Part shown: positions 14,941 to 44,558 of the stretch, in pieces
How the letters are laid out: each line of letters opens with the position of its first letter
Numbering within the stretch: position 1 is the stretch's first letter
Source of the DNA: Patescibacteria group bacterium
GTDB lineage: Bacteria > Patescibacteriota > Minisyncoccia > UBA6257 > 2-01-FULL-56-20
Assembly: GCA_038058095.1 (NCBI GenBank)
Contig: JBBUBW010000009.1
Span: 1-50,042, forward strand
Length of the DNA stretch: 50,042 nt
Direction of reading: 5' to 3'
The notes under the pieces: model-generated
Seen by the model: only the letters and a program-made list of their open reading frames with translations
Told to the model about the DNA's origin: nothing
Database searches by the model: none
Made by a program: the position numbers and the translations under genes

Positions 14941-16146
14941 TTAGTTGCTCTTAATAGGCGCAGAATAAAGCTTTCCGTCGAAACGGTTTATAAAGTAAAT
15001 TTTTTGCCCCACTCTTTTTAGGTTTGTAGCATCTATCTCATCTCCTACGAAAACCGGAATAATCTCACCGGTCGAGATTTTAATTTGGTGAATATTATCT
15101 TCGGTAAAAATTGCTTTTTTGTAATAATCGTCAGGCAAACTGTATCCCTTGAGCTGATTCTCGTCCACAGGGATAGCACAGTTCAAATATTCTTCTTTAA
15201 TAATTTGCGGGACGATGGTTTTTTTAGTTCCCGTCGCGACGGAGGTAGCGGTGACATTTCTAATTTCAAAGTAAAAAGCGCACTTAGAAGGGAGGGTCAC
15301 AAACGTGAATCGCCTCGCCAAAACTCCTTGGCGATTAATCAGTTTCAGTTGTCCGTCAGAAAGTTCAAGGGCCAAAGTTCCGCTCGCATTCCACATTATC
15401 TCAAGCCCTTTTTGGTTCTTAATAATCGGGGTTAAGGTTTTCTTTGAAAAATCAAAAACCCAAAGCGAGTTGGCAATTTGAGCGCTGGCCTTCTCGACTA
15501 GCCAAATTTCTTCCGGTCTTATCCACGTAAGATTTAAATCATTTGCGTGTAAAGAAGTAAATTCTTTCGGTTTGGCTGATTTCTGGGAAAGATCTAATGT
15601 CCCCAGTGTTAGCCCCTGAGCCGTTTTCGCTAGATAGGCAACTCGGTGATCCCCTGGCGCCCACGCCAAAGCTTGGATGTTTAAAGCAATCGGCATCCAA
15701 GTTTTACCGTCAATATCAAAAATGCTTGTTTGGGGATTTTCCGGATTACCAAATCTGGCGGCTACTATTTTGCCGTCAAACGAAAAAGATGCGTCTATTA
15801 AGCCATCAATCGCCGTTGAATTTATTGTTTTCGGCTCCTTTCCGCCCGCTTCGAAAATTTGTCCATCTGGTTGGACAAAAATAACTTTTTCTTGAGTATC
15901 AACAAAATAATCTTTTACCAAATTTGGCGCCACTTGGTTCGATTTTTGGATCAATCCTCCTAAAGAACCCTGTCCAGTACCCGCGGAAGGGGATTCTCCA
16001 CTGGTTCCATTTGGCAATGGACTCTGGTTATCGTCCGGGCTAACTGATTCTGGCGCAGTAGAGCTATTTTTTCTAAGTAAATAACCCCCAACCACCAACC
16101 CGGCTACTACTAGAACAATTATTACTAAAATTAAATATTTCTTCAT
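14941..16146 (-). CDS. membrane-anchored extracytoplasmic protein (hypothetical, beta-rich)
   Basis: 401 aa with an N-terminal TM anchor followed by a Ser/Pro/Gly linker. It is the last gene of the minus-strand T4SS-like operon. No family was recognised. Confidence 0.5.
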   Translation of the reverse strand: MKKYLILVIIVLVVAGLVVGGYLLRKNSSTAPESVSPDDNQSPLPNGTSGESPSAGTGQGSLGGLIQKSNQVAPNLVKDYFVDTQEKVIFVQPDGQIFEAGGKEPKTINSTAIDGLIDASFSFDGKIVAARFGNPENPQTSIFDIDGKTWMPIALNIQALAWAPGDHRVAYLAKTAQGLTLGTLDLSQKSAKPKEFTSLHANDLNLTWIRPEEIWLVEKASAQIANSLWVFDFSKKTLTPIIKNQKGLEIMWNASGTLALELSDGQLKLINRQGVLARRFTFVTLPSKCAFYFEIRNVTATSVATGTKKTIVPQIIKEEYLNCAIPVDENQLKGYSLPDDYYKKAIFTEDNIHQIKISTGEIIPVFVGDEIDATNLKRVGQKIYFINRFDGKLYSAPIKSN

Positions 16147-16149
16147 TTT

Positions 16150-17241
16150 TTATCTCAAGCAGAATTTAACACTCCCTCCTGATGGCGGAAGTTTACATGT
16201 AAGTTGAGTGCCATCACTAACCACTGGGCAAGAATTGGTGCTGGAGCAAGGCAAGCTACAAGAACCAGTCGAACACACATAAGGAGCGTCACACTTCTCG
16301 CTTTCTACAGGCGTGTTTTGACAACCACCTCCAAAAAACGGTAGGCATTGGCCGCCAGCTCCACAAGCGAGGTCGCCACCGCAGTCAGTCTGTGAGGTAC
16401 ACAAGCCTCCTCCCTCAGTCTTTGCGACACATTTTCCCGCAACACATCCCTGCGTGGTTGGGCTTGGGCAGTCTTCGCTAGTAAGACAAGTCCCACTTAC
16501 GACACAAATATTTCTTGGTTGAGAGCAAACAAGCCCGCTCCCACTTTGACATCCCCCATTTATGCAAGCAGCCCCAGCTGTACCGGTTTGTTTACATAAC
16601 CCATCCACGCAAGAGAGACTGTCGACGCTACCACAAGGAGTTGAGGCATCACATGTTTTTAAGATTTCCTTGCAAGATCCATCAATACATTTTTGAAACG
16701 ACAAATAAGGACAATCAGGAGTTGCTGTGCACCCTGCGGGTTTATAGCATCTATTATCGCTTGAGCATAAAAGACCAGTATTACATACGCTACCCCCTAA
16801 ACAGGGACTGTGTAATGTTCCCGGTACTTTAACTGTGATTTTGACGAGAGGTATTTTATCTAATGTTGGTAGCGACAAATTGGTTAATTTAGGATTTATA
16901 GTATTCAAAATTATAAAAGCGCCCGCTAAAAGCAAAAGTCCCAAGAGTGCCTGCTTGATCATATCTTTAGCGTCGCTTTGTCCCGAAGGATTATCAGCTG
17001 AAACCGTGTGTTTTATCGCCGCAAAAACAATAATCACAAAAGCCAAAAGCCCTCCCAGCATCAGCGCGAACTGGTAAAAATTACCTATAATATTAACCGG
17101 ATTTGGCTCCTCAACGGTCGCTGGGTTTGGTCCCGGAATACTAGGATTGATAGTGTAGGCCGCGGCCGGGTTTAAATAAAATCCAAAAAGTAATACCAAG
17201 CCAATCCCTAAATACAACCACTTCGTCTTTGAAATCTTCAT
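16150..17241 (-). CDS. VirB2/TrbC-like pilin module fused to a Cys-rich (32 Cys) C-terminal domain
   Basis: A signal-like N-terminus and two hydrophobic helices separated by a short polar loop (FALMLGGLLAFVIIVFAAI...ALLGLLLLAGAFIIL) match VirB2/TrbC pilins. The last ~215 aa contain 32 Cys in repeated DC-x6-7-C-x3-4-C units. Confidence 0.45.
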   Translation of the reverse strand: MKISKTKWLYLGIGLVLLFGFYLNPAAAYTINPSIPGPNPATVEEPNPVNIIGNFYQFALMLGGLLAFVIIVFAAIKHTVSADNPSGQSDAKDMIKQALLGLLLLAGAFIILNTINPKLTNLSLPTLDKIPLVKITVKVPGTLHSPCLGGSVCNTGLLCSSDNRCYKPAGCTATPDCPYLSFQKCIDGSCKEILKTCDASTPCGSVDSLSCVDGLCKQTGTAGAACINGGCQSGSGLVCSQPRNICVVSGTCLTSEDCPSPTTQGCVAGKCVAKTEGGGLCTSQTDCGGDLACGAGGQCLPFFGGGCQNTPVESEKCDAPYVCSTGSCSLPCSSTNSCPVVSDGTQLTCKLPPSGGSVKFCLR

Positions 17242-17248
17242 ATCTTTT

Positions 17249-17944
17249 TTAAAATCTTAGAGTTATATTTTTCGACGCCATTTCAAAAATATTTCTAGGG
17301 TTTTTTACATTTAAAGATATACTAATAGTCGTTCCTTGCACGGGTATTTGCCGGAAAGTCACATTCAGCACCTTCGGGTCCCCCGAGGCCTCCGGACTTT
17401 GGTCGTTTATTTTCCACTCAAAACCAAGATTATCAGGATTTTTCGTGTTAAAAAAATAAGGCAGTGCTTCAAACCAAACTCTGGAGTCCCGAAGCTTTCC
17501 TCCAGGGAAAGGGACGGGAATCACCACCTCGGGCTTCACTGAAAGAATCTCCACGCTTTTAATCAATGTTTGTCCCAAATAGTCGTTTACCGTGATTCGT
17601 GCTACCTGTCTGCCAACCCCGCTCGCTCGAAAAGTTATCTCCTGGAGTCCGGCGCCTCCTTTAAAAAAGTCGTCGTTTACATACCAATAAATATCATTTT
17701 TTGAAAGATTCACTATTCTTCCGCGGTCAATCATTTCAAAAGACACCGTTATTGAGGATTTATCCGTCGGCAATATTTTACCGGAGAATTCAGCCGGAGC
17801 ATAAGAGCGAGCCTTCCATGTAAACATAAATTCCGGCTCCGTCGCTTGAGCACGCACATTTATTAGCCCATAAAACAAACTGCCGGCTAAAAAAATTATT
17901 GCCAGAGCGGTTCTAAAAAATTGTTTAAAAAGCACCGCTTTCAT
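17249..17944 (-). CDS. secreted hypothetical protein
   Basis: 231 aa with a signal-peptide-like N-terminus ending ...VRAQA. It lies in the operon. Confidence 0.5.
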   Translation of the reverse strand: MKAVLFKQFFRTALAIIFLAGSLFYGLINVRAQATEPEFMFTWKARSYAPAEFSGKILPTDKSSITVSFEMIDRGRIVNLSKNDIYWYVNDDFFKGGAGLQEITFRASGVGRQVARITVNDYLGQTLIKSVEILSVKPEVVIPVPFPGGKLRDSRVWFEALPYFFNTKNPDNLGFEWKINDQSPEASGDPKVLNVTFRQIPVQGTTISISLNVKNPRNIFEMASKNITLRF

Positions 17945-18094
17945 TTCTCCCGTTAATTATACCATTTTTGTTTTTTACTCCCAACAAACTCCGTAGGTCC
18001 GGTTTTGAACACCCACTCCCCAGGAGGAGTTTTTCAATTCATTTTCATTTTGACGCGCGCTTTTAGCTTTACATTTTACGTTCTTACGCCCCCC

Positions 18095-18751
18095 CTAGGC
18101 CGCTTGTTTGTACTGTTTTGCTTTTTCTTCATCCGATTCCGGCGACATAATATCTATTACTTCCGCAATCGATTCTTTTTTAACCCCGAGTTCCTCTTCT
18201 GTGACCTTATCTTTGGCTTTTCTCTCCTCTGTTTCCTGGGTTTGCCCCTCACCCCCTTCTCCTTCGAAAGCCGGGGAAACCGCGCCTCCAGGACGGCCTT
18301 CGCGAGTGCGCACCGGTAATGGCCCCCCTCCTTCTCCCTCGACACCCGACGGCATCGCTTGGCCCGCCTTTATTTGACCCCCCGCCTCCTTACCACCTAC
18401 TTTACCCTTCACTCCACCCTTTGCCGACGCCATCTTCTGCGCCGCGGTGGTTAATTTTGTTGGATGTCGGTCGAGGTAAACCGTCACTCCAAACCCAATA
18501 GTTTTAAGGGGCAAACCGCCAAGCCATGGGATAAGTTCTAATATCCACATCGCTACATACCAAGTCTGCCTAACTCCTCTAAACCAATAGTAAATTGCTA
18601 TTACACTGGCAAAAGTATCTAAAATCCAAAAATCGTCAAGAGCGAAAAAAAGCAGGACTAATTCGATTGCGTCAAAAAATAAGCAGATACCTCCAATAAG
18701 TATTACCTCTACATCAGAAATTTTCGGTTGTGGCTTCTCTTCCTCGTTCAT
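18095..18751 (-). CDS. membrane protein with a Gly/Glu/Lys-rich tail (hypothetical)
   Basis: 218 aa. The N-terminal half has about 3 hydrophobic segments and the C-terminal half is low complexity. Confidence 0.45.
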   Translation of the reverse strand: MNEEEKPQPKISDVEVILIGGICLFFDAIELVLLFFALDDFWILDTFASVIAIYYWFRGVRQTWYVAMWILELIPWLGGLPLKTIGFGVTVYLDRHPTKLTTAAQKMASAKGGVKGKVGGKEAGGQIKAGQAMPSGVEGEGGGPLPVRTREGRPGGAVSPAFEGEGGEGQTQETEERKAKDKVTEEELGVKKESIAEVIDIMSPESDEEKAKQYKQAA

Positions 18752-18859
18752 GATAGTTAGCTACAGAATACAGATGGCACCAGCCTAATATTCTAGAGAT
18801 TCTGCTATCTATTTTACATTCGTATATCCGTACTTTTTCCGTATTCCGTAGCCATATTT

Positions 18860-20572
18860 CTACGTTTTCTGCTCTAATAACTGTTGCGGGTTGGTGGTTA
18901 TAACCTGGTCTTCAAAATACGAAGCAATAATTTGAATTGCTACATGTTTTCGTCCGGCAAAAAACAATCCTGTCCCCACCTCTGCCGAAAGAAGCATATT
19001 TTTCTCCGCCTCGGTTAATCCGAAAGCTTTAGCCACCACATCAATTGTTGCTGGGGCCTGCTTCAAAAGCAATTGAATCGAAGAATTAGTAATAATCGGC
19101 CGTCCATAAGGAGATCGTAGAAAGTCCTCTACGTCTTGGGTAATCGTCGAAACTCCCAAAAAGTACTTTCTCGCCCGCTTTACCAGCCCAAATAAAAACG
19201 TGGCGCTGTCTTCATACTTCATCATCCACCACGCCTCATCAATAATTAAAAGTCTTTTCTTAAGTTGGGCCCGCGTGAGATTCCAAATAAAATTCAAAAT
19301 AATATACATCGCAATCGGCCGCAATTCTTCCTCCAAGTCTCTAATCGAGAAAGCGATGAGACGATTGCCAATGTCGATATTAGTCGCTTGGTTCACGAAC
19401 CCGGCGAAACTGCCTTTTGTGTATTTATACAAACGCTCTGCCATTCCCTTGCCTCCCTCCAAATTGCGTAATATCGTTTCAAGATCTTCTAGCAGCGGCG
19501 GGGAAGCTCCGGAAAAGTCTTCTCCAGGTACAATTTCGCGAGAGGCGTAAGTTTCGGTAATTGCTCGGTCGAGTAAAGCGTCCTCTTCCGCTGAAAGCTT
19601 GCCTAGCATCAATTTTAAAAGACCAGCCAAATTAACAATATGGGACCTAAGTACGTCCGACGGAGTTTCTCCCTCGGGCACAACCGGCACATCAAAAGGA
19701 TTAATATGTTCGTGCGAAGAAAGGGAGATATTGAAAAAACTTCCTCCAAACGCCTCGGTCATTTTCTGATATTCGTTTTCAGGGTCGATAATTAAAATAT
19801 CGACTCCAAGCATCAAATATCTGATAATCTCAAGCTTGGTAGCGTATGATTTTCCCGAACCGGATTTAGCGAAAACCACTTGGTTGGCATTTTCCAAAGA
19901 GAATCGGTCGAAAATAATCAAATTATTATTATGACGGTTGATGCCGTACATAATGCCTTGATTTGAGTTCAAGTCCTCCGATACAAACGGGAAAAACGAA
20001 GAAACCGGTCCCGAATTCATTGGTATTGTAACGTCAATTTTATCTTGCGCGAGCGGCAAAACCGAAAGCAGTCCCTCTAGTTGCTGGAAGAGGGCCGGTT
20101 TCATATAGATTAATTTCGCCTCCAAAATTGACTGGATCTTGCTTTCTAGTTTTGAAAGTTCTTCAAGATTGTCGCCGTAAATTGCGAGATAAACGCCAAC
20201 GCTAAAAAGTTTTTCTTGAGCTTGCTGTAGAGAATCGCGCAGACTCTCTACGTCTTGAAGCGCCGTCTCAAGTAGCGGATCTCTTACCAGCCCTTTATCT
20301 TGCTGGTCGCTGATTTGCGACTCTATTTGAGCTGATTTTTTGCGAAGGTTCTTAAGAGCCATCCCTGTGTCGATCGGATTAATAAAAGTGGAAACATCAA
20401 AAATATTCGGCAGGTTTATGAGCGGTTCGAACCACCCCGTCGAAAGATATCTGGGGTAAGAAAAGAAAAAAAACGTTTTCACATGCTTATCGCCAATCTT
20501 AAGGTAGTTCGAGCTTACCTGAACTCCGGCCGGCGCGATAATTTTTTTTGTGTCTTTAAAATCTTCCGCCAT
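18860..20572 (-). CDS. virB4: VirB4/TrbE-family T4SS ATPase (C-terminal ATPase part)
   Basis: Walker A AKSGSGKSY and Walker B LLIIDEAWWMM. Length and motif order match Gram-positive-type VirB4/TcpF/PrgJ ATPases. Confidence 0.8.
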   Translation of the reverse strand: MAEDFKDTKKIIAPAGVQVSSNYLKIGDKHVKTFFFFSYPRYLSTGWFEPLINLPNIFDVSTFINPIDTGMALKNLRKKSAQIESQISDQQDKGLVRDPLLETALQDVESLRDSLQQAQEKLFSVGVYLAIYGDNLEELSKLESKIQSILEAKLIYMKPALFQQLEGLLSVLPLAQDKIDVTIPMNSGPVSSFFPFVSEDLNSNQGIMYGINRHNNNLIIFDRFSLENANQVVFAKSGSGKSYATKLEIIRYLMLGVDILIIDPENEYQKMTEAFGGSFFNISLSSHEHINPFDVPVVPEGETPSDVLRSHIVNLAGLLKLMLGKLSAEEDALLDRAITETYASREIVPGEDFSGASPPLLEDLETILRNLEGGKGMAERLYKYTKGSFAGFVNQATNIDIGNRLIAFSIRDLEEELRPIAMYIILNFIWNLTRAQLKKRLLIIDEAWWMMKYEDSATFLFGLVKRARKYFLGVSTITQDVEDFLRSPYGRPIITNSSIQLLLKQAPATIDVVAKAFGLTEAEKNMLLSAEVGTGLFFAGRKHVAIQIIASYFEDQVITTNPQQLLEQKT

Positions 20573-21286
20573 TTATTTTTTTTCTTCGCTAGTTTTAGTC
20601 TCCATGCGCTCTGAGGGGATAGCCGACATCTCCTTTTCCACCGTTTCCGGGTTATAAAAATTATAAAAAAGTTCAATGAGCGCTTGGTTGTCTAGTGGCA
20701 CCGCCTCAATGCCGAATGTAGCCAGTCCCTCAACCACTTGGGCTGTTCTCTGGGTGATTTGGTTTAAGTTCTCCTGGAATTCCAAATCAGCCGCCTTCTC
20801 TTCTTTCTTTTCTTTTTCCTCTTTTCCCCCTTTGTTTAAAAAAGGAAATAGCTTAGAAATTCCGGAAATAGTGTCCCTGGTTGGGAGCTTACTCGAAGAA
20901 AAAGGAATTATCACCAAAAAAGTTTTCTCCATAATCGCATTGTCTTTCACAAACCCCCTCACGTATTGAATATATTCAGAGATTTGGCTCTGGATCAAGG
21001 CTGACGGCTCCCGCTCCCTTCGAAGTTCGAGGCCAGCTAAATATTTCTCAATGTTAATTTTTCTGGAATGGATCATAATCTGAATCGGGAAATCTAAACC
21101 ATTTAAAAAGTTCTTGTAGCCATTAGAAATAATATCTAGTTCCGTTTCGGCCATTAACGCCGTATTGATGCCCGAAACCATCACCACCTGCCTTAAGGCG
21201 CCGCTTTTCAAAATCGCCACCCCTTCTTTAATTTCTTCGATATCAACTAAATCCTGAGTATTTGCTAGTTGTTTATTGAGGGCCAT
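20573..21286 (-). CDS. VirB4 N-terminal-domain-like protein (split VirB4)
   Basis: 237 aa. Its stop abuts the ATG of the ATPase ORF. The pattern ...IEEIKEGVAILKSGALRQVVMVSGIN... resembles the N-terminal domain of VirB4. Combined, 237+570 aa is about the VirB4 size I recall (~800 aa). Confidence 0.45.
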   Translation of the reverse strand: MALNKQLANTQDLVDIEEIKEGVAILKSGALRQVVMVSGINTALMAETELDIISNGYKNFLNGLDFPIQIMIHSRKINIEKYLAGLELRREREPSALIQSQISEYIQYVRGFVKDNAIMEKTFLVIIPFSSSKLPTRDTISGISKLFPFLNKGGKEEKEKKEEKAADLEFQENLNQITQRTAQVVEGLATFGIEAVPLDNQALIELFYNFYNPETVEKEMSAIPSERMETKTSEEKK

Positions 21287-21296
21287 ATTAATGAAA

Positions 21297-21326
21297 TTTT
21301 AGGTGTTAGGTTGTGGGTTTTAGAAC
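21297..21326. repeat. AGGT-rich block E1 (TTTTAGGTGTTAGGTTGTGGGTTTTAGAAC)
   Basis: Inverted with respect to E2. About 24 of 29 positions match the reverse complement of 21773-21803. Confidence 0.7.
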
Positions 21327-21363
21327 TCTATTAAGTAAATTATACGCTAAAAAATAATTTTTC

Positions 21364-21732
21364 TTAAGTTCTTTCTCTCAACTTCAGCTCTAGCTTAGAT
21401 ATAAGAACATTTAGCATTTTTTGAACCTCCAATAGCAAGTTCTCGGTCTCTGTATAATTTAAATTCGAGTAAAGTCTTCTTGCAATAATAATCTGAGTTT
21501 CTAATTCTGACGCCGATCCTTCTGATACGCGGAGAAAGTGTAGGTATTCAGGCAAACCCTTCCTACGTGAACCTTCTGCTATATTTGACGGGATAGACAC
21601 TGCCGCTCTGCGCATTTGCGAGACCAATCCATATTGTTCGTCCTTCGGAAAACTAATAGTTAATTTATATACTTGTTCTACTAAAGTAATTGCCTTTTGC
21701 CAAACAATTAGTTCTTTATAAGACTTTAGCAT
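21364..21732 (-). CDS. four-helix-bundle protein (23S rRNA intervening-sequence protein family, TIGR02436-like)
   Basis: 122 aa. The segment YKELIVWQKA...L...MRRAAVSIPSNIAEG...SELETQ is the canonical family pattern. Confidence 0.85.
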   Translation of the reverse strand: MLKSYKELIVWQKAITLVEQVYKLTISFPKDEQYGLVSQMRRAAVSIPSNIAEGSRRKGLPEYLHFLRVSEGSASELETQIIIARRLYSNLNYTETENLLLEVQKMLNVLISKLELKLRERT

Positions 21733-21772
21733 TTTTTCTACAACCTGCCACCCAGTATTAACCCAACTTTTT

Positions 21773-21807
21773 TATCTATAACCTACAACCCATCACCTAA
21801 AACCTAA
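21773..21807. repeat. ACCT-rich block E2 (TATCTATAACCTACAACCCATCACCTAAAACCTAA)
   Basis: Near-identical to the block at 29453-29486. It is the inverted partner of E1. Confidence 0.7.
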
Positions 21808-22316
21808 TAACGATAATCCACCCTCCTGGCCGCCTGCCTCTCTCCTGTAATTTTCTCAAAAACCTGATAACGCTCTTTGATTTTTTGCGAAAAATCTTGA
21901 GCGTTAATTAGACCTTGCTTAGTGCCAGTCTGAAGTTTCTGCCACGTATTTTTTAAGGACGCGCCCGCGATAATGCTTTCGAGCGAAAATCCAGGTTTCG
22001 CAAGCTTCATAATTTCCTCACTTTTCGTTACTTGAGGGTTCTCCGGCTGCCAAACAAAAGTTTGGGGTTGCCAATAAAATTTCATGCCCGATAAAAGAAT
22101 TTTCGAAAGCGGCCGGCCGTTAATTTTTATAAATGCCATCGAGAGACCGAGTCCCCCGACAAAAAGCATAATAATCAACCATAACCAAAAAACTATAATG
22201 AAAAAAAGAGCAAAACCAACCGCCGCCACAGCGCCAAGGTAAAAAAACTGCTTAAGTGAGAGGGGGCCGATAATCTTATCCTCCGTCTCTATAAACTGAG
22301 GAACTTGGAATTGCAT
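21804..22316 (-). CDS. PrgI family (VirB3-like) T4SS membrane protein
   Basis: 170 aa. The N-terminus MQFQVPQFIETEDKIIGPLSLKQFFYLG followed by two TM helices matches the PrgI-family pattern. Confidence 0.6.
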   Translation of the reverse strand: MQFQVPQFIETEDKIIGPLSLKQFFYLGAVAAVGFALFFIIVFWLWLIIMLFVGGLGLSMAFIKINGRPLSKILLSGMKFYWQPQTFVWQPENPQVTKSEEIMKLAKPGFSLESIIAGASLKNTWQKLQTGTKQGLINAQDFSQKIKERYQVFEKITGERQAARRVDYRY

Positions 22317-22373
22317 GTTAAAAAATTAAATATAAAACATCAAAAATTAAAATGACAGATTAAATATCAAAAA

Positions 22374-22745
22374 TCACTTCCGCCCCTTCAAGGTTAGTAT
22401 ACTCGAAGCAATAATTTTTGATATCTCAATAATTTCTTCTAGTAGTTGGTCTAATGCCGCCTTGTCGCCCTTTCCAGTATCTCTCAGCAACGTTAACCAA
22501 ACCTTAGATTCATTCGCGGATTTTAAAGAATAATTAAAAAAATTAGTAAAATCCCTCCGCGAGCTTGCTGAAGATGCCTCTATGTAATTAGCCAAAACAC
22601 TGGTACCGCTTCGTAGGAGTTGCTTCCCCATAACTTCGCAAATAGAATCCTTAGGCAACTTATCAATAAATTTAACCAAATCTAAAGCCCAAGAGTAAAG
22701 GCGTTTCTTGAAATCATTTTTAAATTTTGAGTTGTCATTTTTCAC
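22374..22745 (-). CDS. four-helix-bundle protein (23S IVS protein family)
   Basis: 123 aa with ...GKQLLRSGTSVLANYIEA...F...SLKSANESKVWL. The GTG start overlaps the upstream stop (GTGA). Confidence 0.8.
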   Translation of the reverse strand: MKNDNSKFKNDFKKRLYSWALDLVKFIDKLPKDSICEVMGKQLLRSGTSVLANYIEASSASSRRDFTNFFNYSLKSANESKVWLTLLRDTGKGDKAALDQLLEEIIEISKIIASSILTLKGRK

Positions 22746-24457
22746 TTTGATTTTTCATCTTTTATTTTAGTTAGTGAACTCAAATCAATCATTTCTTCGC
22801 TTGGCGGCAAATTTGTTTTTTGGGGTTCAGGTGGAATCTCTTTCTCTCTAATATCAAAGGTTTTTTGTGGAGGCATGTTTGGAGTAATTTGAGGGAACGG
22901 TTGGGTGGTTATTTTAGGTTGGGGAATTGTTTCCGAAACGGGTCTCGGTTGGGGCGAACGGGGAATTGGCGGAGTAGGAGGGATAAAAGATATTTCTTTT
23001 GATGAGGTTTCTGGTTTTTTTGAAAAAATAGAGCGGAGCCAGCTGGAATGCTTTTCCTCCGGCTTTGAAAACATCGAATTAAGATTCGCTGGCCTGCCCT
23101 CTGGAGGCATCAAGTCGGTGCCATAATTTACTGTCGCTATTTTTTGCGGTCCTTGATTTTTTTGAGGCGCAGGCATTTGAGGGAAAACTGGTGCTGTGGG
23201 CGTTTGCACCCTTACTGGACTCGGCATTGGCATCTCTGGTCTTACAACTGGGGAGGGGGGTGGAAATGACGGCGCTTTAGGTACTGAAGCGCCGGGCGGG
23301 TTCTCGAGGGGTGTCTGAAAAGTATTGTAATGAACCACCCTCGGAGGTTTTATTACATCTGTTTTAGCTAAAGTTTCCGGCAATTGTTTTCCTCCTCCAA
23401 ATTCAACTCTTACTGCGAGCCGGCCCTCGTTTTTAGAAGTAGGGGAGCTAAATTGCGAAGACGGCGGTTCTAAATGAAATGATGACATTGGTCTAATCGG
23501 TTCCTGATCTGATTCTTGATGGATAATCACCGGCCCAGTTCCATAGTCTAAAGAACCAGCCGGCTTTTCTTGCATTGGGGGCCTAGGAGCTTGGAATGGG
23601 GGAGTCGTAGACAGTTTCGGTGTAAGGGAACTTGGAAACGGCGGGGCGGTCGCAGTTTTAGTAGTTTCTTTTTTCTTCAAAACATCCACTAACTCCGCTC
23701 CTGAATGCTCGAGCTTTTTAATCTCCTCTACAATTCCCATCGGGCTCTCGCCGGTATCTTTAAAGGTATTAACTGGTGGCCTTATCTCGGTTGTGGCTGG
23801 TCGGGCTGGCGCGCTAGGCGAAGACGGTCTAAAAATCGGCGCCGGTTTCGGCGGTTCCATTTCTCTAACTGCCATTCGGTTCGATCCCAAATCTCCTAGC
23901 CCTTGCCCACTAAGTTCTTCCATCATTTTAGGTCTCGGTATCCCTCCGGCTTGAGGCGGTTGCGGCGCTGCGGACGGTTTCCATTGAGGCGTGGCCGGTT
24001 TCTCGGCTACAGTTTTTTTCTGCGCCAAATCAGCATCCTCCGCAATCATCACCGGCCGAGGCGGCATCGGCTTTGATGATTCAGGACTTAATATTCTTGG
24101 CTTATCCGAAGCTCCTATAATTGGTCTATAATTCTTTTCAAGCTCTTCTTTCAAAGGGCCAAAGACTTTACTGTCAATTTCATCAGCTAATGATTTCGAG
24201 AGTTTATGGTTATTCAAAACTAAAGCCTCGTCAATTTCTCTCGCCAAATCTTCAAGATGGATAAACCCAAATATAATCAAAGCCACTAGTTGCTGTATTA
24301 TTAATATCTTTTCTTCGTCGACAAGGTGGTGATTTTGGCAGATCTTTACCACTGCCTGATAAGATTGCTTGTTACTCAAAAGATCTCGAAGTTTCGCCGG
24401 TAGCGAATCAAATCTTTTCTTTAATTCATTTTCAGTTATTAGTTCTAATTGAATCAT
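22742..24457 (-). CDS. proline-rich low-complexity protein with a ~120-aa structured N-terminus (hypothetical)
   Basis: 571 aa. After about residue 120 the sequence is dominated by P/S/T/A/Q. Confidence 0.5.
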   Translation of the reverse strand: MIQLELITENELKKRFDSLPAKLRDLLSNKQSYQAVVKICQNHHLVDEEKILIIQQLVALIIFGFIHLEDLAREIDEALVLNNHKLSKSLADEIDSKVFGPLKEELEKNYRPIIGASDKPRILSPESSKPMPPRPVMIAEDADLAQKKTVAEKPATPQWKPSAAPQPPQAGGIPRPKMMEELSGQGLGDLGSNRMAVREMEPPKPAPIFRPSSPSAPARPATTEIRPPVNTFKDTGESPMGIVEEIKKLEHSGAELVDVLKKKETTKTATAPPFPSSLTPKLSTTPPFQAPRPPMQEKPAGSLDYGTGPVIIHQESDQEPIRPMSSFHLEPPSSQFSSPTSKNEGRLAVRVEFGGGKQLPETLAKTDVIKPPRVVHYNTFQTPLENPPGASVPKAPSFPPPSPVVRPEMPMPSPVRVQTPTAPVFPQMPAPQKNQGPQKIATVNYGTDLMPPEGRPANLNSMFSKPEEKHSSWLRSIFSKKPETSSKEISFIPPTPPIPRSPQPRPVSETIPQPKITTQPFPQITPNMPPQKTFDIREKEIPPEPQKTNLPPSEEMIDLSSLTKIKDEKSK

Positions 24458-24466
24458 TTTTTAAAA

Positions 24467-26056
24467 TTAGCTTTCTAGTTCTTTCCAAATCGTGGGTATC
24501 ACCACGCAACTAGTACAATCACGTATCGGTTTCTTAGTGCTCCTCTCTACGTGATGGCAATTTTGGCATTCCCAATCTCTAACTTTATTACCTTTAAACA
24601 ACCCCGAACCTTCTTTCATTCCTTTATACGCCGCGCCGCCAAAAGTAACTTTCGCGCTATCTTTGCCGAATTGAGTTAAATCATTAAAAGTTTCATTAGG
24701 CAATATCTTTACCGATGCCCGATACGCCACTCTTTGCACCGGTGCGGTAAACTTTCTCCCAAACCTCCCAAGCGCTGCTCTTATCCCCGGCGCTGGGGGC
24801 CCCATTGTTGGAGGCGCCGGGGGTTTAGTCAAAAACCTAGCTATCCCCCCCCCAGTTTTCGCCCCCGCCCACTTCCTAGCACCCTTAGAAAAACCCTTCA
24901 TCGCTCCCATCCCCGCCTTTGCCCCAACAATACTTAACTGATTCGCCACATAAAGTCCTCCCATCGTAATCCCCACAATAATAATCATATTCATAAAACC
25001 CTGGATGGGTGCCGAAAGAGGGCTCCCTAGGAAACTAGAGATTCCGGCGAAAATGTTGTTTTTACCCGGACTGGAAAAGGCGGTCAAATCCATAGTCCCA
25101 CCTTGCCCCAAACTCATTTCTCTGCTGGTTAAAATCGCTAAATAAAGGAAGAAAACCACCAGTGGCGCGAAGAAGACCTGTTTCAAAAATTGGCTCCACC
25201 ATTTTGACCAATTAGAACTAAGTCCTGGGAAAATCCACAAAAGCCAGGCAAACGGCATAACAATCAAAAGGATGCCCAGAGCCACATACCGGTAGAGGAG
25301 CATAAATATAAACACCGCTAAAGTAATTACTATAGCCGCGAGCGAAAAAACCACAAAAGCCAAAGAAGCAATCGGTAGAAGTAACTTCCCTAGCCCTTCT
25401 CCGTTCGCCGCCGCAATTCCCGATAGCTTTTCCGTATCCTCGACGGTTAAACTATTCAGCCCATTTTCAAGCATAATTCCCTTTTGCGGGTTAAACGCCC
25501 CGGCTAGTCCGGAAGCGAAAGCGTTGAATTGCGAACCGCTTTCCGTCGGGTTCACTTGTCTTAAGAAGTAAAGCGTAAATTGGTCTGCGAAATTAATAAT
25601 TGCTCCCGCGAAAACCAAACTGAAATTTACCAAAAGCGCCGCCACCACCAGTTTCCAGAGAATCTGCTTAATGCCGTATCCCGACCAGCGCAAAATTGTG
25701 GCGATGGCGATTACTATTATCGCCGCCGTAAACCCTAAATTGGCGATTGAAAGCGCCACCGGAAATCCAAAATGAACCGGCGGCGAGTTTACTATCTGGG
25801 TGTTGATATTTAAGACTACCTCAATTAGCCACGCCTCAACCCCCACTACTAGTCCCATCACGCTGCTGACAATATAGGAAATTCCGAAAACAAGCTTCCC
25901 GACTACCGTATAAGCTAAATCGCTAAACCAACTGGATTGGGCGTGAGTTACCTGCGGCACAAGCAAAAGCGCCAAAACTAAAACTCCAAAAATCACTCGC
26001 CATTTCGTAGGAATTTTAATCAATCGGTCAATAATTTTTTCCTTCAAAAATTTCAT
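24467..26056 (-). CDS. polytopic membrane protein, VirB6/TrbL-like by context, with a C-terminal CxxC...CxxC tail
   Basis: 529 aa with about 8 hydrophobic segments. The tail reads CQNCHHVERSTKKPIRDCTSC. The assignment rests on topology and neighbourhood only. Confidence 0.4.
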   Translation of the reverse strand: MKFLKEKIIDRLIKIPTKWRVIFGVLVLALLLVPQVTHAQSSWFSDLAYTVVGKLVFGISYIVSSVMGLVVGVEAWLIEVVLNINTQIVNSPPVHFGFPVALSIANLGFTAAIIVIAIATILRWSGYGIKQILWKLVVAALLVNFSLVFAGAIINFADQFTLYFLRQVNPTESGSQFNAFASGLAGAFNPQKGIMLENGLNSLTVEDTEKLSGIAAANGEGLGKLLLPIASLAFVVFSLAAIVITLAVFIFMLLYRYVALGILLIVMPFAWLLWIFPGLSSNWSKWWSQFLKQVFFAPLVVFFLYLAILTSREMSLGQGGTMDLTAFSSPGKNNIFAGISSFLGSPLSAPIQGFMNMIIIVGITMGGLYVANQLSIVGAKAGMGAMKGFSKGARKWAGAKTGGGIARFLTKPPAPPTMGPPAPGIRAALGRFGRKFTAPVQRVAYRASVKILPNETFNDLTQFGKDSAKVTFGGAAYKGMKEGSGLFKGNKVRDWECQNCHHVERSTKKPIRDCTSCVVIPTIWKELES

Positions 26057-26081
26057 TTCTCGAATAGGGCTTTAACTAAAT

Positions 26082-28559
26082 TTACCAAGGGCCATCACAC
26101 TTATTTTGCGGGTAACTTCTCAAAGGATTCCAGGGGATAGGATTCCCCCTACTATTGTAAATACTTTCATAATTGCCAAACGTCTTATCCAGCTCTCCAT
26201 TTCGAGTTCTAGCTGTGTCTATATTTAAAGTCAGCATCGTTAAATCAAAATCACTATCCAGATCTCGGGTCAGCTCGGCAAGTACCAAAGTATCAGTCGC
26301 CATGCTAACTTTCACTGCTAAATCAGCCAGCTTATCAAGAGAAGAACTCGCGTCGGCTCTTTCTTTAATTGAAGCAACATAACCGGCTTGGACGTTCGCC
26401 ATCGCCGTGTTTACAGCCAATAATTTGTCAGTCGTGAAGTTCGTATTTAGAGGATCAAAGTAAGAATGGCAAGAATTTAATACGTCAGAAATCACGCTAA
26501 TAGTTGCCGTCGCATTGTTTATATAATAATTATCGAATGTTATTAGCTGTCTATATAGAGTTTGGTATGACGAAATTGATATCAGTAACGTGCTACTGCT
26601 TAAAGCCGTGGTTGCGTACATCGCCGCAACGTCTTTAGCGCTTTTTACACAGTCCGAGTATTCAGTCGAAGAAGTGGCGTACATCGCACAAGTTTCTTTA
26701 ACGTAGTCGGCAGATGGAGGTTTCGTGGTAGTCGCTATAAAGCCCGGTTCTTCTCCTTCAGAATTCGTCGCTTTCTGGAAAACCTTCTGAATCAGCGAGT
26801 CAATAAAGGCTGTCGCTATTGTTATCATATCATTGGCATTTACTAGCCAGTCATCATGAAGCCCCGTGGCCTTAGCCAAAGTTTCACCCACTATCTTTCC
26901 TGGCGTGGTATCCTCCCATCCATCCTGAGGGCAGGTTTTGAAAGTATGGTCAGATTTTACTGGGCCTATATAGTCCATGCCGGCTTGTTTCGCGTAAGCT
27001 TTAGCATCAGCTACTAAATCAGGGCTGGTTCTAATATCCTCAAGGGAATAAGCATCTTCTAGATTTAATGGCGGATTCGTTGGGTTTTTACACACTCTCG
27101 TCGCTAAGAATCCTGCCGCATTCGCCACCCTTTGCCCTTGCGCCGCTTGCGCCCCTTGCGCTTTAGTGAGCGCGATATCGCTAAGCGTGATCATTACTCC
27201 GAAAGGATTATTTTGAGGGGTAATCACTTGAAAATAATCCTGCCACCCGCCCTTATCGAAACTCTTATAAAATTCTTTAACATTCTCCACCGCTTCAGTA
27301 AGAGTGCAGGTTGTCCGTTCGGTCATATCGGCTAATCTCGGGTTGGATGGACGCTTAAATGCCAGCGTAATAAATGGCTGAATTGAAGCGCAGACTTGAG
27401 GCAGGTGTTTATAAATCTCCGCGCCTATGGCGGCATCGAATGTCGATCTCGCTGTCCCGATTAAGTCTTGTGCAAATCTCGGTTGTCCTTTCCCCTTTAC
27501 CCAATTTTGCGTTGCATTAACTATTTGATTTATTAATTTTTTCTTCAACTTTTCTTTTATCACGCCTTGCACCCACTCCCAAATCTTTCTGGCTAAGTTA
27601 ACTGGATCTATGACAATATCTCCAAAGCCAAAAATACCGTAAGCTGTTTTTGGTAAGAATAAATCCTTTACCAAAGAAAACGGCCCCGAAATTTTATTAG
27701 CGCTTGATAACTTCCCGAGTGAGTTAGCTTTATTTAATTCGTTCCCAAAATTTCGTATCGCATCATTATAATCTTGCTCTTGCAGTTGAAGAACCAAGCT
27801 TGATTTCAGTGGGTCGTTCTCTTCCTGGCTAAGCTCCAAAGCTTGTTTTTGATAGAGAGTTAACTTGAGCAAACTTTTATGAAAGTTTGCGAGCGCCTCT
27901 GGCACTTCAAGGGCTTTGATTTTTAAAAAAGTTTGTTCTAGAACTAACGCTACCGAACTAATCGAAGTCGGAGTGGGATCGCTAGCTAAGACATCGGACA
28001 CCCCCGAGCGGACATAGTTCTCATCCAAAATAGAATTTAATTTATCAGTATAGTTTTTAATATCTTCCGGTCCATAATTTTTTAGTACATCGATGTCTTC
28101 GCTTTTTGCAATAAGTTCTGCTCTAGTGGCGTTTACTTGATTAGCAATTTCTTGAGTATTAGCAACACCCGCAGTATAACCTTCCGCATTTTTTGACACT
28201 TCATTCACTTGGGCGTTTATATCCGCTGAATTTTGGGGATCTAGTTGTATCATCCCCTCCGCTAGCTTCTGCCCAACATTTTCAGTTAAATTCGAAGGAT
28301 CGCTAACCGGCGGCAATAAATCGCCGTCAGTGTTCGCTTGAGCTAGCGAATTGGAAGATTCACTCCCCGGCACCGATTCCACGTAAGCCTGCCCGCCGAA
28401 TGCCGACTGATTTTGTCCCAAAGTACCGTTCCCTTCGCTCACCTCCATCTCCGACGGAGATAATTTTGAGCCGCCTGAATTTGATAAAAAGAAAGCCGCC
28501 GAGCTTGCGATAAATGCCACTGCCAAAAATCCCGTGATCAGCCGCTTAGGATCAACCAT
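26082..28559 (-). CDS. large extracytoplasmic protein (hypothetical), first gene of the operon
   Basis: 825 aa with an N-terminal anchor (ITGFLAVAFIASSAAFFL). No family was recognised. Confidence 0.5.
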   Translation of the reverse strand: MVDPKRLITGFLAVAFIASSAAFFLSNSGGSKLSPSEMEVSEGNGTLGQNQSAFGGQAYVESVPGSESSNSLAQANTDGDLLPPVSDPSNLTENVGQKLAEGMIQLDPQNSADINAQVNEVSKNAEGYTAGVANTQEIANQVNATRAELIAKSEDIDVLKNYGPEDIKNYTDKLNSILDENYVRSGVSDVLASDPTPTSISSVALVLEQTFLKIKALEVPEALANFHKSLLKLTLYQKQALELSQEENDPLKSSLVLQLQEQDYNDAIRNFGNELNKANSLGKLSSANKISGPFSLVKDLFLPKTAYGIFGFGDIVIDPVNLARKIWEWVQGVIKEKLKKKLINQIVNATQNWVKGKGQPRFAQDLIGTARSTFDAAIGAEIYKHLPQVCASIQPFITLAFKRPSNPRLADMTERTTCTLTEAVENVKEFYKSFDKGGWQDYFQVITPQNNPFGVMITLSDIALTKAQGAQAAQGQRVANAAGFLATRVCKNPTNPPLNLEDAYSLEDIRTSPDLVADAKAYAKQAGMDYIGPVKSDHTFKTCPQDGWEDTTPGKIVGETLAKATGLHDDWLVNANDMITIATAFIDSLIQKVFQKATNSEGEEPGFIATTTKPPSADYVKETCAMYATSSTEYSDCVKSAKDVAAMYATTALSSSTLLISISSYQTLYRQLITFDNYYINNATATISVISDVLNSCHSYFDPLNTNFTTDKLLAVNTAMANVQAGYVASIKERADASSSLDKLADLAVKVSMATDTLVLAELTRDLDSDFDLTMLTLNIDTARTRNGELDKTFGNYESIYNSRGNPIPWNPLRSYPQNKCDGPW

Positions 28560-28595
28560 TTACTATTATTATAGTCTCAAAAACCAATAAAGAAA

Positions 28596-28672
28596 TCCCC
28601 AGCCCTAGAACTAATTGTGAAATATCTGCAACTCCTGAAATTACAGCCACCTCCTAGGGTGAAGTAGTAGGG
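28596..28672. repeat. degenerate CCCCGTAC-family element X
   Basis: ACTAATTGTGAAATATCTGC (28610-28629) is identical to 34459-34478, and similarity continues for about 23 more nt. The right arm is only partly complementary. Confidence 0.6.
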
Positions 28673-28674
28673 GT

Positions 28675-29448
28675 TCACTCCAAGACCGTAGCCAATCTCA
28701 CAATTTCGTCTATTGATAAATTTTGCGGCCGGTCGCTCGGTTTCACTCCTTCTTTCTCTAAAACCTCTAAAATCTTTTCCCGAGTCCATCCATTTTCACC
28801 TTTGGCCACTAAATTATTCAAAATCGTTTTTCTTGGCTGTTGAAACAATATTCGGACCATTCTATAGTATTTTTTTTCATCAACCTCAAACCTACCACCT
28901 AAAACCTGCAACCTAATTACTGCCGAATCCACTTCCGGTGGGGGCGAAAAAAGTTTCGCCTGAAGATAGTCGACAATTTTTGGTTCCGCCCAAAACTGAA
29001 CCGATGCCGCAAGCCGGTTCATCTTCGGCGGCTCGGCCGTTATTCTAATCGCCACCTCTTTTTGGATCGTTAAAACACAAATTTCTGGTTTATTCTCAAG
29101 CTCACTAATTACTCGCAATAAATGTCCTGTTATATAGTAGGGGATATTGCCTACAATTTTATAAGTTTTTAACTTTTCTCTTTTAGTTTTTAGCTTTTCT
29201 AGGGCATCACCTTCAACAATTTCAACATTTTTATCTTCTCCAAATTTATTTCTTAATAATTCCACAAAATCTTTATCTCTCTCAATCGCAATTATTTTTA
29301 ACCCTTCTGCCTTTAGTTTTTCTGTCAGCTCTCCGTGCCCCGCGCCAATTTCAATCACCGTATCTCCCGGTTCCAAATTCAACGCTTCCGCAATTTTTAG
29401 AAGTGTCGTTCTATCTTTCAAAAAATGTTGCCCCAGTTTTCTTCTCAT
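28675..29448 (-). CDS. rsmA: 16S rRNA (adenine1518/1519-N6)-dimethyltransferase RsmA/KsgA
   Basis: MRRKLGQHFL N-terminus, EIGAGHG SAM motif and NIPYYIT. Confidence 0.9.
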   Translation of the reverse strand: MRRKLGQHFLKDRTTLLKIAEALNLEPGDTVIEIGAGHGELTEKLKAEGLKIIAIERDKDFVELLRNKFGEDKNVEIVEGDALEKLKTKREKLKTYKIVGNIPYYITGHLLRVISELENKPEICVLTIQKEVAIRITAEPPKMNRLAASVQFWAEPKIVDYLQAKLFSPPPEVDSAVIRLQVLGGRFEVDEKKYYRMVRILFQQPRKTILNNLVAKGENGWTREKILEVLEKEGVKPSDRPQNLSIDEIVRLATVLE

Positions 29449-29452
29449 CTTT

Positions 29453-29486
29453 ATCTATAACCTACAACCTAACACCTAGAACCTAG
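29453..29486. repeat. ACCT-rich block E4 (TATCTATAACCTACAACCTAACACCTAGAACCTAG)
   Basis: It lies 4 nt upstream of the rsmA start on the coding strand and overlaps the helicase stop. Confidence 0.7.
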
Positions 29487-33924: not shown

Positions 33925-33957
33925 TCTACAACCTAACACCTACAACCTTTAACCTAA
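33925..33957. repeat. ACCT-rich block E5 (TCTACAACCTAACACCTACAACCTTTAACCTAA)
   Basis: It abuts the comM start and overlaps the last codons of the upstream gene. Confidence 0.65.
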
Positions 33958-44468: not shown

Positions 44469-44558
44469 ATAGGTGACAGGTTGAAGGTTTTAGGTTTTAG
44501 AGAGGTTACCTTCTCCCGAGTTACTAGCACCTAACACCTAAAAACTATAACCTAATCC
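44469..44558. repeat. paired AGGT-rich / ACCT-rich blocks E6
   Basis: ATAGGTGACAGGTTGAAGGTTTTAGGTTTTAGAGAGGTTA ... CACCTAACACCTAAAAACTATAACCTAATCC. Both orientations are present with no gene between them. Confidence 0.6.

Follow-up and report, generated by a model that had tools for sequence, protein, structure and literature searches.

Heptamer-armed cassettes as probable carriers of two rRNA intervening-sequence-family genes within the secretion operon of a very small groundwater bacterium

An ultra-small bacterium from groundwater (Patescibacteria group; assembly GCA_038058095.1, contig JBBUBW010000009.1, positions 1 to 50,042, the whole analysed stretch being referred to as the window) carries, within a secretion operon, a pair of small genes that belong to the rRNA intervening-sequence (IVS) protein family. 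The two genes, 4HB1 and 4HB2, are positioned between the 571-aa upstream gene (up571), a PrgI-like gene and VirB4N (Table 1). An earlier note, made from the sequence, had described them as TIGR02436-like genes interrupting the operon, and profile searches bore this out: 4HB1 and 4HB2 reach 122 and 69 bits with PF05635 (E-values, 1.6 × 10−35 and 4.6 × 10−19; curated cut-off, 33.8) and 117 and 83 bits with TIGR02436 (E-values, 3.6 × 10−34 and 1.9 × 10−23; curated cut-off, 24). The closest solved structure to 4HB1 is 2GSC (XCC0516; E-value, 1.2 × 10−25), an entry with five chains, and the R..S...N..E motif is retained in both proteins. 4HB2 is a member of a divergent clade (100% support) that is confined to the same operon in relatives. 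The dN/dS ratios of the 4HB proteins, 0.08–0.10 (about 0.09; 0.088 for 4HB1 against its orthologue in the relative G004), indicate strong purifying selection. No Rfam family matched positions 20900–23100 at E ≤ 1. The genome has an rnc gene; a check for an IVS in its own 23S rRNA gene found no 23S gene in the assembly.

Table 1. Features of the two cassettes, their host genes and related repeats; positions are those of the window.
Feature	Position	Strand	Description
VirB4 N-terminal part, host gene	20573..21286	-	downstream of cassette 1
Cassette 1 transfer unit	21276..21834	-	559-nt tract, 1-3 differences in related population; five independent assemblies
Cassette 1 3' arm	21291..21324	-	TCTAAAACCCACAACCTAACACCTAAAATTTCAT (coding strand)
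Promoter-like site	21339..21367	-	TTAAGA-17-TATAAT, 10/12; between 4HB1 stop and 3' arm, facing VirB4N
4HB1	21364..21732	-	122 aa, PF05635/TIGR02436 (profile search)
Cassette 1 spacer	21733..21774	-	second partial array GGCAGGTTGTAGAAAAA, immediately 5' of 4HB1 ATG
Cassette 1 5' arm	21775..21808	-	heptamer array ATTAGGT TTTAGGT GATGGGT TGTAGGT TATAGA
PrgI/VirB3-like host gene	21804..22316	-	between cassettes; kept in 90/101 relatives
Cassette 2 as indel	22317..22748	-	432 nt, replaced by 58 nt in related population
Cassette 2 3' arm	22322..22380	-	T-rich; from 4HB2 stop to shortly before PrgI-like start
4HB2	22374..22745	-	123 aa, PF05635/TIGR02436 (profile search)
Cassette 2 5' arm	22710..22768	-	AT-rich; outer part is native 3' end of 571-aa gene
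Solo TAGGT-type heptamer array	29455..29486	-	5' of ksgA; GGTTGTAGGTTATAGATAAA common to cassette 1 5' arm
Solo TAGGT-type array	33926..33956	-	flanked by two minus-strand genes
Gene-less TAGGT/ACCTA hairpin	44485..44541	+	flanked by two plus-strand genes

The inverted flanks of about 29 bp that had been noticed around the first gene were confirmed as a repeat of 28 nt with 86% complementarity (21297–21324/21775–21802), which extends to 34 positions (21291–21324/21775–21808) comprising 27 Watson–Crick pairs, 3 G·U, 1 A·C and 3 others. Joined by a short loop, the arms fold at −32.2 kcal/mol (z = −6.5; 0 of 200 shuffles equal), and in the predicted fold of the whole 529-nt cassette they pair in both the MFE and the centroid structures, as the note had suggested for the RNA. 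The TAG stop codon of the PrgI-like gene is the first unit of the 5' arm. The partial array GGCAGGTTGTAGAAAAA of the spacer is missing in the G004 orthologue, while the block TTTTTAGCGTATAATTTA at the promoter-like site is kept there; since the count of the promoter scan is at chance level, this site is a lead only.

The flank of the second gene had been put at 11 bp, which proved wrong: cassette 2 has a 59-nt inverted repeat (22322–22380/22710–22768; 73% AT-rich), although its stem has little thermodynamic stability (−17 kcal/mol, z = −1.8). The inner part of its 5' arm takes in the start codon of 4HB2, a GTG that shares bases with the upstream stop codon (GTGA), and the outer part is native coding sequence that is found in the empty allele too. 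In the related population that carries this empty allele, the upstream gene encodes 592 aa, 21 residues more than the 571 aa here. The filled/empty junction shows no duplication of a target site, the alleles differing by a 432/58-nt replacement and not by a clean insertion. Among the 651 genes of the genome, cassettes 1 and 2 come 5th and 9th by flank-to-flank repeat score, with the two further strong 4HB genes in 6th and 18th place.

The arms of both cassettes are tandem arrays of degenerate 7-nt units, a feature that the earlier note had missed. The genome-wide census of 4HB genes and flanks that it had proposed revealed that a gene plus arms is the standard build of the 4HB family. In this genome (G000) and its relatives, 34 of the 39 4HB genes have a flank inverted-repeat score of at least 27, against 1.5% of 647 control genes (Mann–Whitney p = 2 × 10−22; the compared genomes being related, such tests are not fully independent). 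The build was replicated in 53 of 68 metagenome loci, which brings the count to 87 of 107 family members overall, and identity is 0.69 at lag 7 and about 0.28 at other lags. Every cassette has its own heptamer, and the sequences differ between cassettes, yet complementarity is maintained. An association with AGGT/ACCT blocks, as had been supposed, holds for cassette 1 and fails for all other 4HB genes, which have different heptamers; most AGGT/ACCT arrays are gene-less.

On crude ORF maps, both neighbours run in the same direction as the cassette in 29 of 34 cases, and 2 cassettes are antisense. The 5' array usually provides the stop codon of the upstream gene: the stop lies inside the array in 44 of 72 cassettes, and in 28 of those 44 it is TAG. 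One protein clade together with one heptamer (TAGCCAN) was found in three different contexts, one of which hosts different cassette types and holds one cassette in inverted orientation; such covariation of clade and heptamer is equally explained by co-inheritance. The order of units in TAG-type arms is mostly irrelevant. In a mirror-order test, which has low power at 3–5 units per arm, 8 of 30 cassettes beat unit-shuffled arms, and these were mostly of the 4HB2 type, whose arms are position-specific inverted repeats covering the start codon.

In total, 86 period-7 arrays were found in the genome (89 by the length cut applied to other periods), against 11–32 per period for periods 5, 6 and 8–11. 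Most of the 86 have no gene, and the array families are those represented in the four cassettes' arms. Array size peaks at 4–5 units and falls sharply above 5, and the orientation of solo arrays relative to genes is mixed, with no clear rule on the crude gene map. Across 34 genomes, array density correlates with the number of 4HB genes (Spearman 0.56, p = 6 × 10−4; other periods, rho 0.02). The association is not absolute, because G055 has genuine arrays and no 4HB match in a 90%-complete assembly; G021 has nine 4HB genes and few arrays in the 40 kb sampled. The arrays of G008, which has no 4HB gene, were discarded as GC-rich low complexity. PF13366 (GxxExxY) was considered as a partner of orphan heptamer families and rejected, its sole copy in this genome (C4:33962–34375) being without heptamer arms.

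Comparison with orthologous operons agreed with the view that the cassettes interrupt a conserved operon: most of the 30 operons are without them, so that the cassettes are dispensable, and some sites hold gene-less hairpins. At least five occupancy changes are seen among these operons. The 4HB2-type cassette, present in only 6 of the 30, occupies site A in G003 and site B in G000; gene-less hairpins of its arm family occupy sites in G044, G015 and G057, and the one at site A of G044 retains the start of a 4HB2-type ORF. Gain, loss and replacement of cassettes are all seen among the relatives. What looked like a 155-nt insert at site B in L235 turned out to be a scaffold gap of Ns.

The suggestion that the cassettes are mobile gained support from a co-occurring related population, in which the genes flanking cassette 1 are 10–14% divergent and the cassette 1 tract is near-identical. 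In five assemblies, the mismatches against this sister population amount to 74/513 in PrgI, 1–3/517 in cassette 1 and 69/714 in VirB4N, and the tract ends 31 and 11 nt beyond the intergenic region. The same population lacks cassette 2, though its neighbouring genes are about 90% identical. Cassette 1 was recently exchanged as a whole between these diverged populations, which occur together. Ordinary homologous recombination could account for the exchange if each population had a cassette at the site beforehand; the one argument for element-specific exchange is that the endpoints are tight. Near-identical cassettes in another genomic context were not found for any of the genome's four proteins, exact matches being the same loci, and the metagenome scan yielded only relatives at most 63% identical. 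The C43 cassette in the SRR3269xxxx samples comes from the same strain and is uninformative.

On balance, these results favour the view that both genes are cargo of small mobile DNA cassettes, the mRNA-operon counterparts of rRNA IVSs, a reading that we hold to be somewhat better than even. Such a cassette would consist of one PF05635 gene between two inverted arrays of 3–5 degenerate 7-nt units each, would settle co-oriented in short intergenic gaps of an operon, and would differ from the ORF-bearing rRNA intervening sequences in host site, an mRNA operon, and not in kind. We infer that DNA is where the arms chiefly work, whether as element ends (protein-binding arrays) or as short homologies through which recombination into existing arrays can occur. 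The 4HB protein, likely a ring-shaped oligomer related to Avd, would bind its own heptamer array and be needed for the persistence or spread of the element. Once transcribed as part of the polycistronic RNA, the two arms of cassette 1 would pair into a stem of about 28 bp, and its cleavage by RNase III is plausible by analogy with IVSs; we regard this cleavage as a consequence of the structure rather than a selected function. We know of no enzyme for cassette movement and of no catalytic activity of the 4HB fold.

More tentatively, PF05635 proteins may be the trans-acting partner of bacterial heptanucleotide arrays in general, although we consider this broader idea doubtful. A ring-shaped oligomer (2GSC being a pentamer) would read 4–5 tandem heptamers, with its own unit in each clade. 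In a system like REP/RAYT, gene plus arms would then be autonomous, whereas solo arrays and hairpins that have no gene would be the non-autonomous copies; rRNA genes, with their IVSs, would count as one of many landing sites. The peak of array size at 4–5 units, the correlation between arrays and 4HB genes and the covariation of clade and heptamer are consistent with such reading of heptamers by 4HB proteins.

The arms might instead, in line with the note's idea of modules that segment the operon transcript, have been selected as an RNase III-cleaved stem that frees the 4HB mRNA and uncouples the flanking secretion genes. This is unlikely in our estimation, even though cassette 1 has a strong 28-bp stem, the genome has rnc, the 4HB2-type arms are position-specific over the start codon, and both arms lie on one transcript because the cassettes are co-oriented with the operon; moreover, RNase III cleaves IVSs that carry this protein family at such a stem (PMC4990558). 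A selected RNA stem should favour G·U, but the sense-strand mismatches in 87 cassettes comprise 114 G·U against 132 A·C, and therefore give no sign of pairing being kept for RNA. The near-indifference of TAG-type arms to unit order, the weak stem of cassette 2 and the operation of the operon without cassettes in close relatives also argue against it, as does the predominance of solo arrays in the arm families, which consequently form no stem.

Its clade being confined to the operon, with all six members there, 4HB2 at least may have been domesticated and no longer be a free element; it would then be a vertically inherited and translationally coupled accessory of the T4SS-like system with ordinary intergenic flanks. 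The overlap of its GTG start with the upstream stop, its purifying selection and the native coding sequence in its outer 5' arm, shared by the empty allele, would fit such a history. This is nevertheless quite improbable given that 4HB2 is found in so few of the operons, that one genome has it at site A and the others at site B, that a population whose adjoining genes are about 90% identical lacks it, and that gene-less hairpins of the same arm family stand at sites in three relatives. The last possibility, accidental low-complexity similarity or ordinary terminators beside unrelated small genes, may draw on the AT-rich arms of cassette 2, which barely beat shuffles, and on promoter and terminator scans of the region at chance level, but is scarcely tenable, being refuted by the distribution of the control genes and opposed by the frequency of arms in the family, the sharp lag-7 signal, the complementarity kept between differing arm sequences and the lack of a terminator-like site at the arms. 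The terminator scan found no intrinsic terminator on the minus strand at the arms of either cassette; with arms on both sides, and with neither a U tract nor a single attC-like site, integron cassettes and intrinsic terminators were both rejected.

To our knowledge, the S23p/IVS family and the bacterial heptamer repeats have each been without a function for about 30 years. If the cassette reading is correct, they would be two parts of one element, which lives in ordinary operons, with rRNA genes as only one landing site, and whose recent movement is seen in a natural aquifer community; proposals that IVSs are selfish elements thereby become testable. Annotation is affected as well, since the arrays provide stop codons, shorten adjacent genes, lie within ORFs and can pass for operon components, as in earlier reports of the family at cas loci.

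Several known systems resemble the cassettes in part. The gene for the DGR accessory protein Avd that had been placed 15 kb away was confirmed (37261–37650, minus strand; PF22296; E-value, 2.8 × 10−16). Avd shares the four-helix-bundle fold and a distant sequence match with 4HB1, which scores 20.7 bits with the bAvd profile against a cut-off of 40 (4HB2 gives no match), but the two genes studied here do not adjoin an RT, TR or VR. A 23S_rRNA_IVP gene wedged between cmr3 and cmr2 of a cas operon (PMC3936711) is likewise a family member between two genes of an unrelated operon; it was called CRISPR-associated in that paper, which describes no flanking repeats or mobility. The heptanucleotide families of bacteria, i.e., the cyanobacterial STRR, GGGAATC of Xanthomonas, GGGGATT of Nostoc and TAACTGA of Beggiatoaceae (PMC4692102, PMC4679880, PMC2700814), also form intergenic arrays of 2–6 heptamers with frequent convergent inverted pairs, a lineage-specific unit and no known function. 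The S23p/four-helix-bundle family is not mentioned in PMC4679880 or PMC4692102, whereas the arrays described here track the number of 4HB genes and build the arms of cassettes.

In REP/REPIN and RAYT systems, as here, a single-copy gene lies between inverted short repeats, the repeat is also dispersed across the genome as gene-less intergenic hairpins, and each gene variant is paired with its own repeat variant. The 4HB protein, however, has no HUH/Y1 transposase motifs or known catalysis, matching only PF05635 and bAvd, and its repeats are tandem 7-nt arrays instead of a single palindrome.

The closest likeness is to the 23S rRNA IVSs carrying an S23p ORF in Coxiella burnetii, Leptospira, Xanthomonas and Brucella (PMC4990558), and insertions in CPR rRNA genes carry the PF05635 family as well (PMC11270868). 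The IVS geometry that had been proposed for the first gene is upheld by the same protein family, a size of about 430–520 nt, a terminal inverted-repeat stem of about 28 bp enclosing the ORF, tandem heptamers 5' of the start codon (PMC4990558) and a patchy distribution, read as horizontal spread. The ORF-enclosing terminal stem is present in cassette 1 and weak in cassette 2. In contrast to IVSs, the cassettes lie between protein genes of an operon and not in an rRNA helix, both of their arms are heptamer arrays, and gene-less copies are dispersed in the genome. Their ORFs are intact and under purifying selection, unlike that of Coxiella, which is in decay and probably not translated.

The source genome (G000; 758 kb, 50 contigs, 43% G+C; the window is its contig C9) is that of a groundwater CPR/Patescibacteria bacterium. 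Every gene of window 14941-31357 is carried by the minus strand, and ORF-based gene maps place two four-helix-bundle (4HB) genes in the same operon as VirB4. A profile search revealed that both exceed the curated PF05635 and TIGR02436 cut-offs, and XCC0516 of Xanthomonas campestris (2GSC, five chains; E-value, 1.2e-25) is the closest solved structure. The DGR Avd reported earlier on the same window is a true Avd (PF22296). The split of VirB4 into two ORFs recurs in nearly all of the 30 relatives; thus, it is a lineage trait and no pseudogene.

Positions of the operon genes, cassette features and heptamer arrays in the window
Feature	Position	Strand	Remark
571-aa protein, function not assigned	22742-24457	-	first in transcription order
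4HB2	22374-22745	-	second; PF05635 and TIGR02436 match
PrgI/VirB3-like protein	21804-22316	-	third
4HB1	21364-21732	-	fourth; PF05635 and TIGR02436 match
VirB4 N-terminal ORF (VirB4N), 237 aa	20573-21286	-	fifth
VirB4 C-terminal ORF (VirB4C), 570 aa	18860-20572	-	last; abuts VirB4N
Split VirB4, both ORFs	18860-21286
Inverted flanks of cassette 1	21297-21324 / 21775-21802		28 nt, 86% complementary
Promoter-like TTAAGA-17-TATAAT	21339-21367	-	cassette 1, between ORF and 3' arm
Tract near-identical in sister population	21276-21834		559 nt
Region of cassette 2 replaced in sister population	22317-22748		432 nt, replaced by 58 nt
ksgA	28675-29448	-
TAGGT-type array inside ksgA	28882-28916		five units
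Solo TAGGT array	29455-29486
Solo TAGGT array	33926-33956
DGR Avd	37261-37650
Gene-less hairpin	44485-44541

Each 4HB gene and its inverted flanks (arms) form a cassette. The flanks noted earlier around 4HB1 were recovered; with wobble pairs counted, they pair over 34 positions, fold alone at -32.2 kcal/mol (z -6.5), and remain paired when the full cassette is folded (MFE and centroid structures alike). Cassette 2, credited with only a weak 11-bp flank, had been under-described: its inverted repeat is 59 nt long and 73% AT-rich, and the stem is thermodynamically weak (z -1.8). Both arms in both cassettes are made up of 7-nt tandem units, e.g. TTAGGTT TTAGGTG ATGGGTT GTAGGTT ATAGA, and the first unit of the cassette 1 5' arm supplies the TAG stop of the PrgI-like gene. 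The other two 4HB genes of the genome, on contigs C28 and C43, have arms (GTGTCAG/GTATCAA and GTTAGAC/GTTGGAC) quite unlike those of the other cassettes. When 651 G000 genes were scored identically for flank repeats, the four strong 4HB genes took ranks 5, 6, 9 and 18.

This architecture is the standard build of the 4HB family. In the census of G000 and 100 relatives, genomes that are related to one another, 34 of 39 4HB genes reach a flank-repeat score of at least 27, as do 53 of 68 at independent metagenome loci and just 1.5% of 647 control genes (Mann-Whitney p 2e-22). The lag-7 identity of the arms is 0.69 in the genomes (other lags, about 0.28) and 0.63 at the metagenome loci. The 5'-side arm is mostly TAGNNNN (TAG 77 versus CTA 13 in relatives; 93 versus 22 in metagenomes) and, as a unit length of 7 is not divisible by 3, it offers a stop codon in every frame, entering from either strand. 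For 44 of 72 cassettes, the 5' array contains the stop codon of the upstream gene (TAG in 28 of the 44). Since 29 of 34 cassettes run in the direction of both neighbouring genes (two are antisense), 4HB expression probably depends on the host operon.

A sister population from the same aquifer (wells H41 and H43; five assemblies, two pipelines) was located by exact-protein look-up. Its upstream gene is 76% identical to that of G000, and PrgI, VirB4N and VirB4C differ at 74/513, 69/714 and about 10% of positions, whereas the intergenic region holding cassette 1 differs at only 1-3/517. The near-identical tract ends 31 nt and 11 nt beyond this region; at a background divergence of about 11%, a tract of this length with one difference has a chance of about 1e-28, and coincidence is therefore not credible. 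The few SNPs vary from assembly to assembly, which argues against a simple chimeric assembly. Thus, cassette 1 appears to have been recently transferred between the two lineages, and the earlier suggestion of mobility is supported by this near-identity within diverged flanks. The exchange could also reflect ordinary recombination between populations that both already had a cassette. Cassette 2 is absent from the sister population, the upstream gene of which is 21 residues longer (592 versus 571 aa); as the filled/empty comparison revealed, that gene's own coding sequence makes up the outer half of the "5' arm" of cassette 2. An apparent 155-nt insertion between the upstream and PrgI-like genes at one sister locus (ENA ERZ1292625, contig Hain_H41_01um_R1_1041, ~2400-2500) was a scaffolding artefact with an N run and a duplicated PrgI start.

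The core of the promoter-like site in cassette 1 is kept in relative G004, and the promoter scan was at chance level. A TATAAT box also precedes VirB4N in empty-site relatives, so cassette 1 may have landed upstream of the VirB4N promoter or brought that promoter along; the site may restore VirB4N transcription.

Cassettes come and go among relatives. Of 101 relatives, 90 have kept the PrgI-like gene; most of the 30 orthologous operons fetched for comparison lack a cassette gene. The PrgI-VirB4N gap (site A) is occupied by a gene in 4/30 and the gap between the upstream gene and PrgI (site B) in five, G000 not counted; two congeners have no gene at either site, and occupancy on the host tree requires at least five changes. 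In relative G003, a 4HB2-type cassette occupies site A, and site B has just a solo TAGGT array (one without an inverted partner), the reverse of G000. At several "empty" sites there is a heptamer hairpin with no gene; that at site A of G044 looks like an internal deletion derivative, as it retains AAATCAAAGTGCAAAATGACAAT, the arm plus first codons of a 4HB2-type ORF. In the 4HB protein tree, members of a clade have the same type of heptamer. The clade with TAGCCAN units occurs in three contexts unrelated to one another, the gap between RNase J and TrpRS is filled by unrelated cassettes in G000 and G036, and a glycosyltransferase-pilin gap by at least three cassette types over six genomes, one of them inverted. 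The divergent 4HB2 clade has six members, all of them in this operon.

The cassette arms are members of genome-wide heptamer families. TRF, at arbitrary thresholds, detected 86 period-7 arrays in G000 at ≥ 2.9 copies and 89 at ≥ 20 nt, versus 11-32 for each of periods 5, 6 and 8-11 at the same length cut. Most are gene-less, including some short-loop hairpins and many solo arrays. The families comprise TAGGT (24 arrays), TAGAC/TGGAC (13), TAGAA (7), and TCAAG/TCAGG, TGAAT and A-rich GATTTTT (4 each); the arms of the four G000 cassettes represent four of these six. The solo array ahead of ksgA (29455-29486) and the cassette 1 5' arm have 20 nt in common (GGTTGTAGGTTATAGATAAA). In 34 genomes, array density measured outside the neighbourhood of 4HB genes increases with 4HB gene number (Spearman 0.56, p 6e-4; other periods, rho 0.02); the link is not absolute, as G055 has genuine arrays yet no 4HB hits.

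Some arrays lie within or between other genes. The one inside ksgA (residues IRLQVLGGRFEV) does not lengthen the protein, and two units with a potential in-frame TAG read CAG and GAG. Two GTTAGAT/CGTCTAA-type hairpins in a class I aminoacyl-tRNA synthetase-like frame (C43:36532-37030, minus strand) are apparently translated through. A TAGGT/ACCTA hairpin occupies each successive gap of the rnhB-rpmF-nusB-rnc string (C18:4700-6308), the last gene of which encodes RNase III. In several relatives, PF05635 matches sit in long stop-free frames (G079:C17:4119-4436, 715 aa; G079:C2:3246-3560, 430 aa), as if read through inside a larger gene. PF13366 (GxxExxY/PDDEXK_3) matches within 770-1030-aa frames of at least 10 related genomes (e.g. 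G094:C10:12172-12513, G063:C4:40789-41133, G052:C7:17271-17612) suggest in-frame insertion of this small nuclease-like module into one large host gene.

Pairing kept for the sense transcript predicts more G.U than A.C mismatches; no such excess was found in the arms (46 versus 55 in relatives, 68 versus 77 in metagenomes). Shuffling the unit order of one arm rarely reduced the best pairing of TAG-type arms; for 4HB2-type arms it did. Because of these results and the many solo arrays, the arms are read as a repeated DNA motif present in two inverted copies, with a putative role as ends of the element, arrays for binding or substrates of recombination; a stem in RNA follows from this structure. 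By analogy with rRNA intervening sequences (IVSs), RNase III would probably cleave that stem; its gene is present in the genome. The copy number of period-7 arrays is bimodal (G000 and 50 sampled regions), with a doublet background, a second peak at 4-5 units, a sharp fall above 5 and almost none above 5.5; this peak and fall would not be expected of a slippage-driven microsatellite.

Heptamer arrays, often in convergent pairs, are known from Xanthomonas, Nostoc, Beggiatoaceae and Geobacter (PMC4679880 and PMC4692102 among the sources), and these two papers make no mention of PF05635. A family member wedged in cas operons has been reported, with repeats not mentioned (PMC3936711), and no description of a gene-plus-heptamer-arm cassette in operons was found in the literature searched. 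New to this analysis are the near-identity of cassette 1 between diverged flanks, a filled/empty allele for cassette 2, a swap of cassette sites between members of one genus, the hairpin that looks like a deletion derivative, the wobble test, an upper limit to array size, and stop codons provided by the arms. Previous work has linked the family to rRNA IVSs (PMC4990558) and to 16S/23S insertions in CPR (PMC11270868). The Coxiella S23p ORF is decaying (PMC4990558), whereas a dN/dS of 0.08-0.10 (pairs with unsaturated dS) indicates that the 4HB proteins described here are functional.
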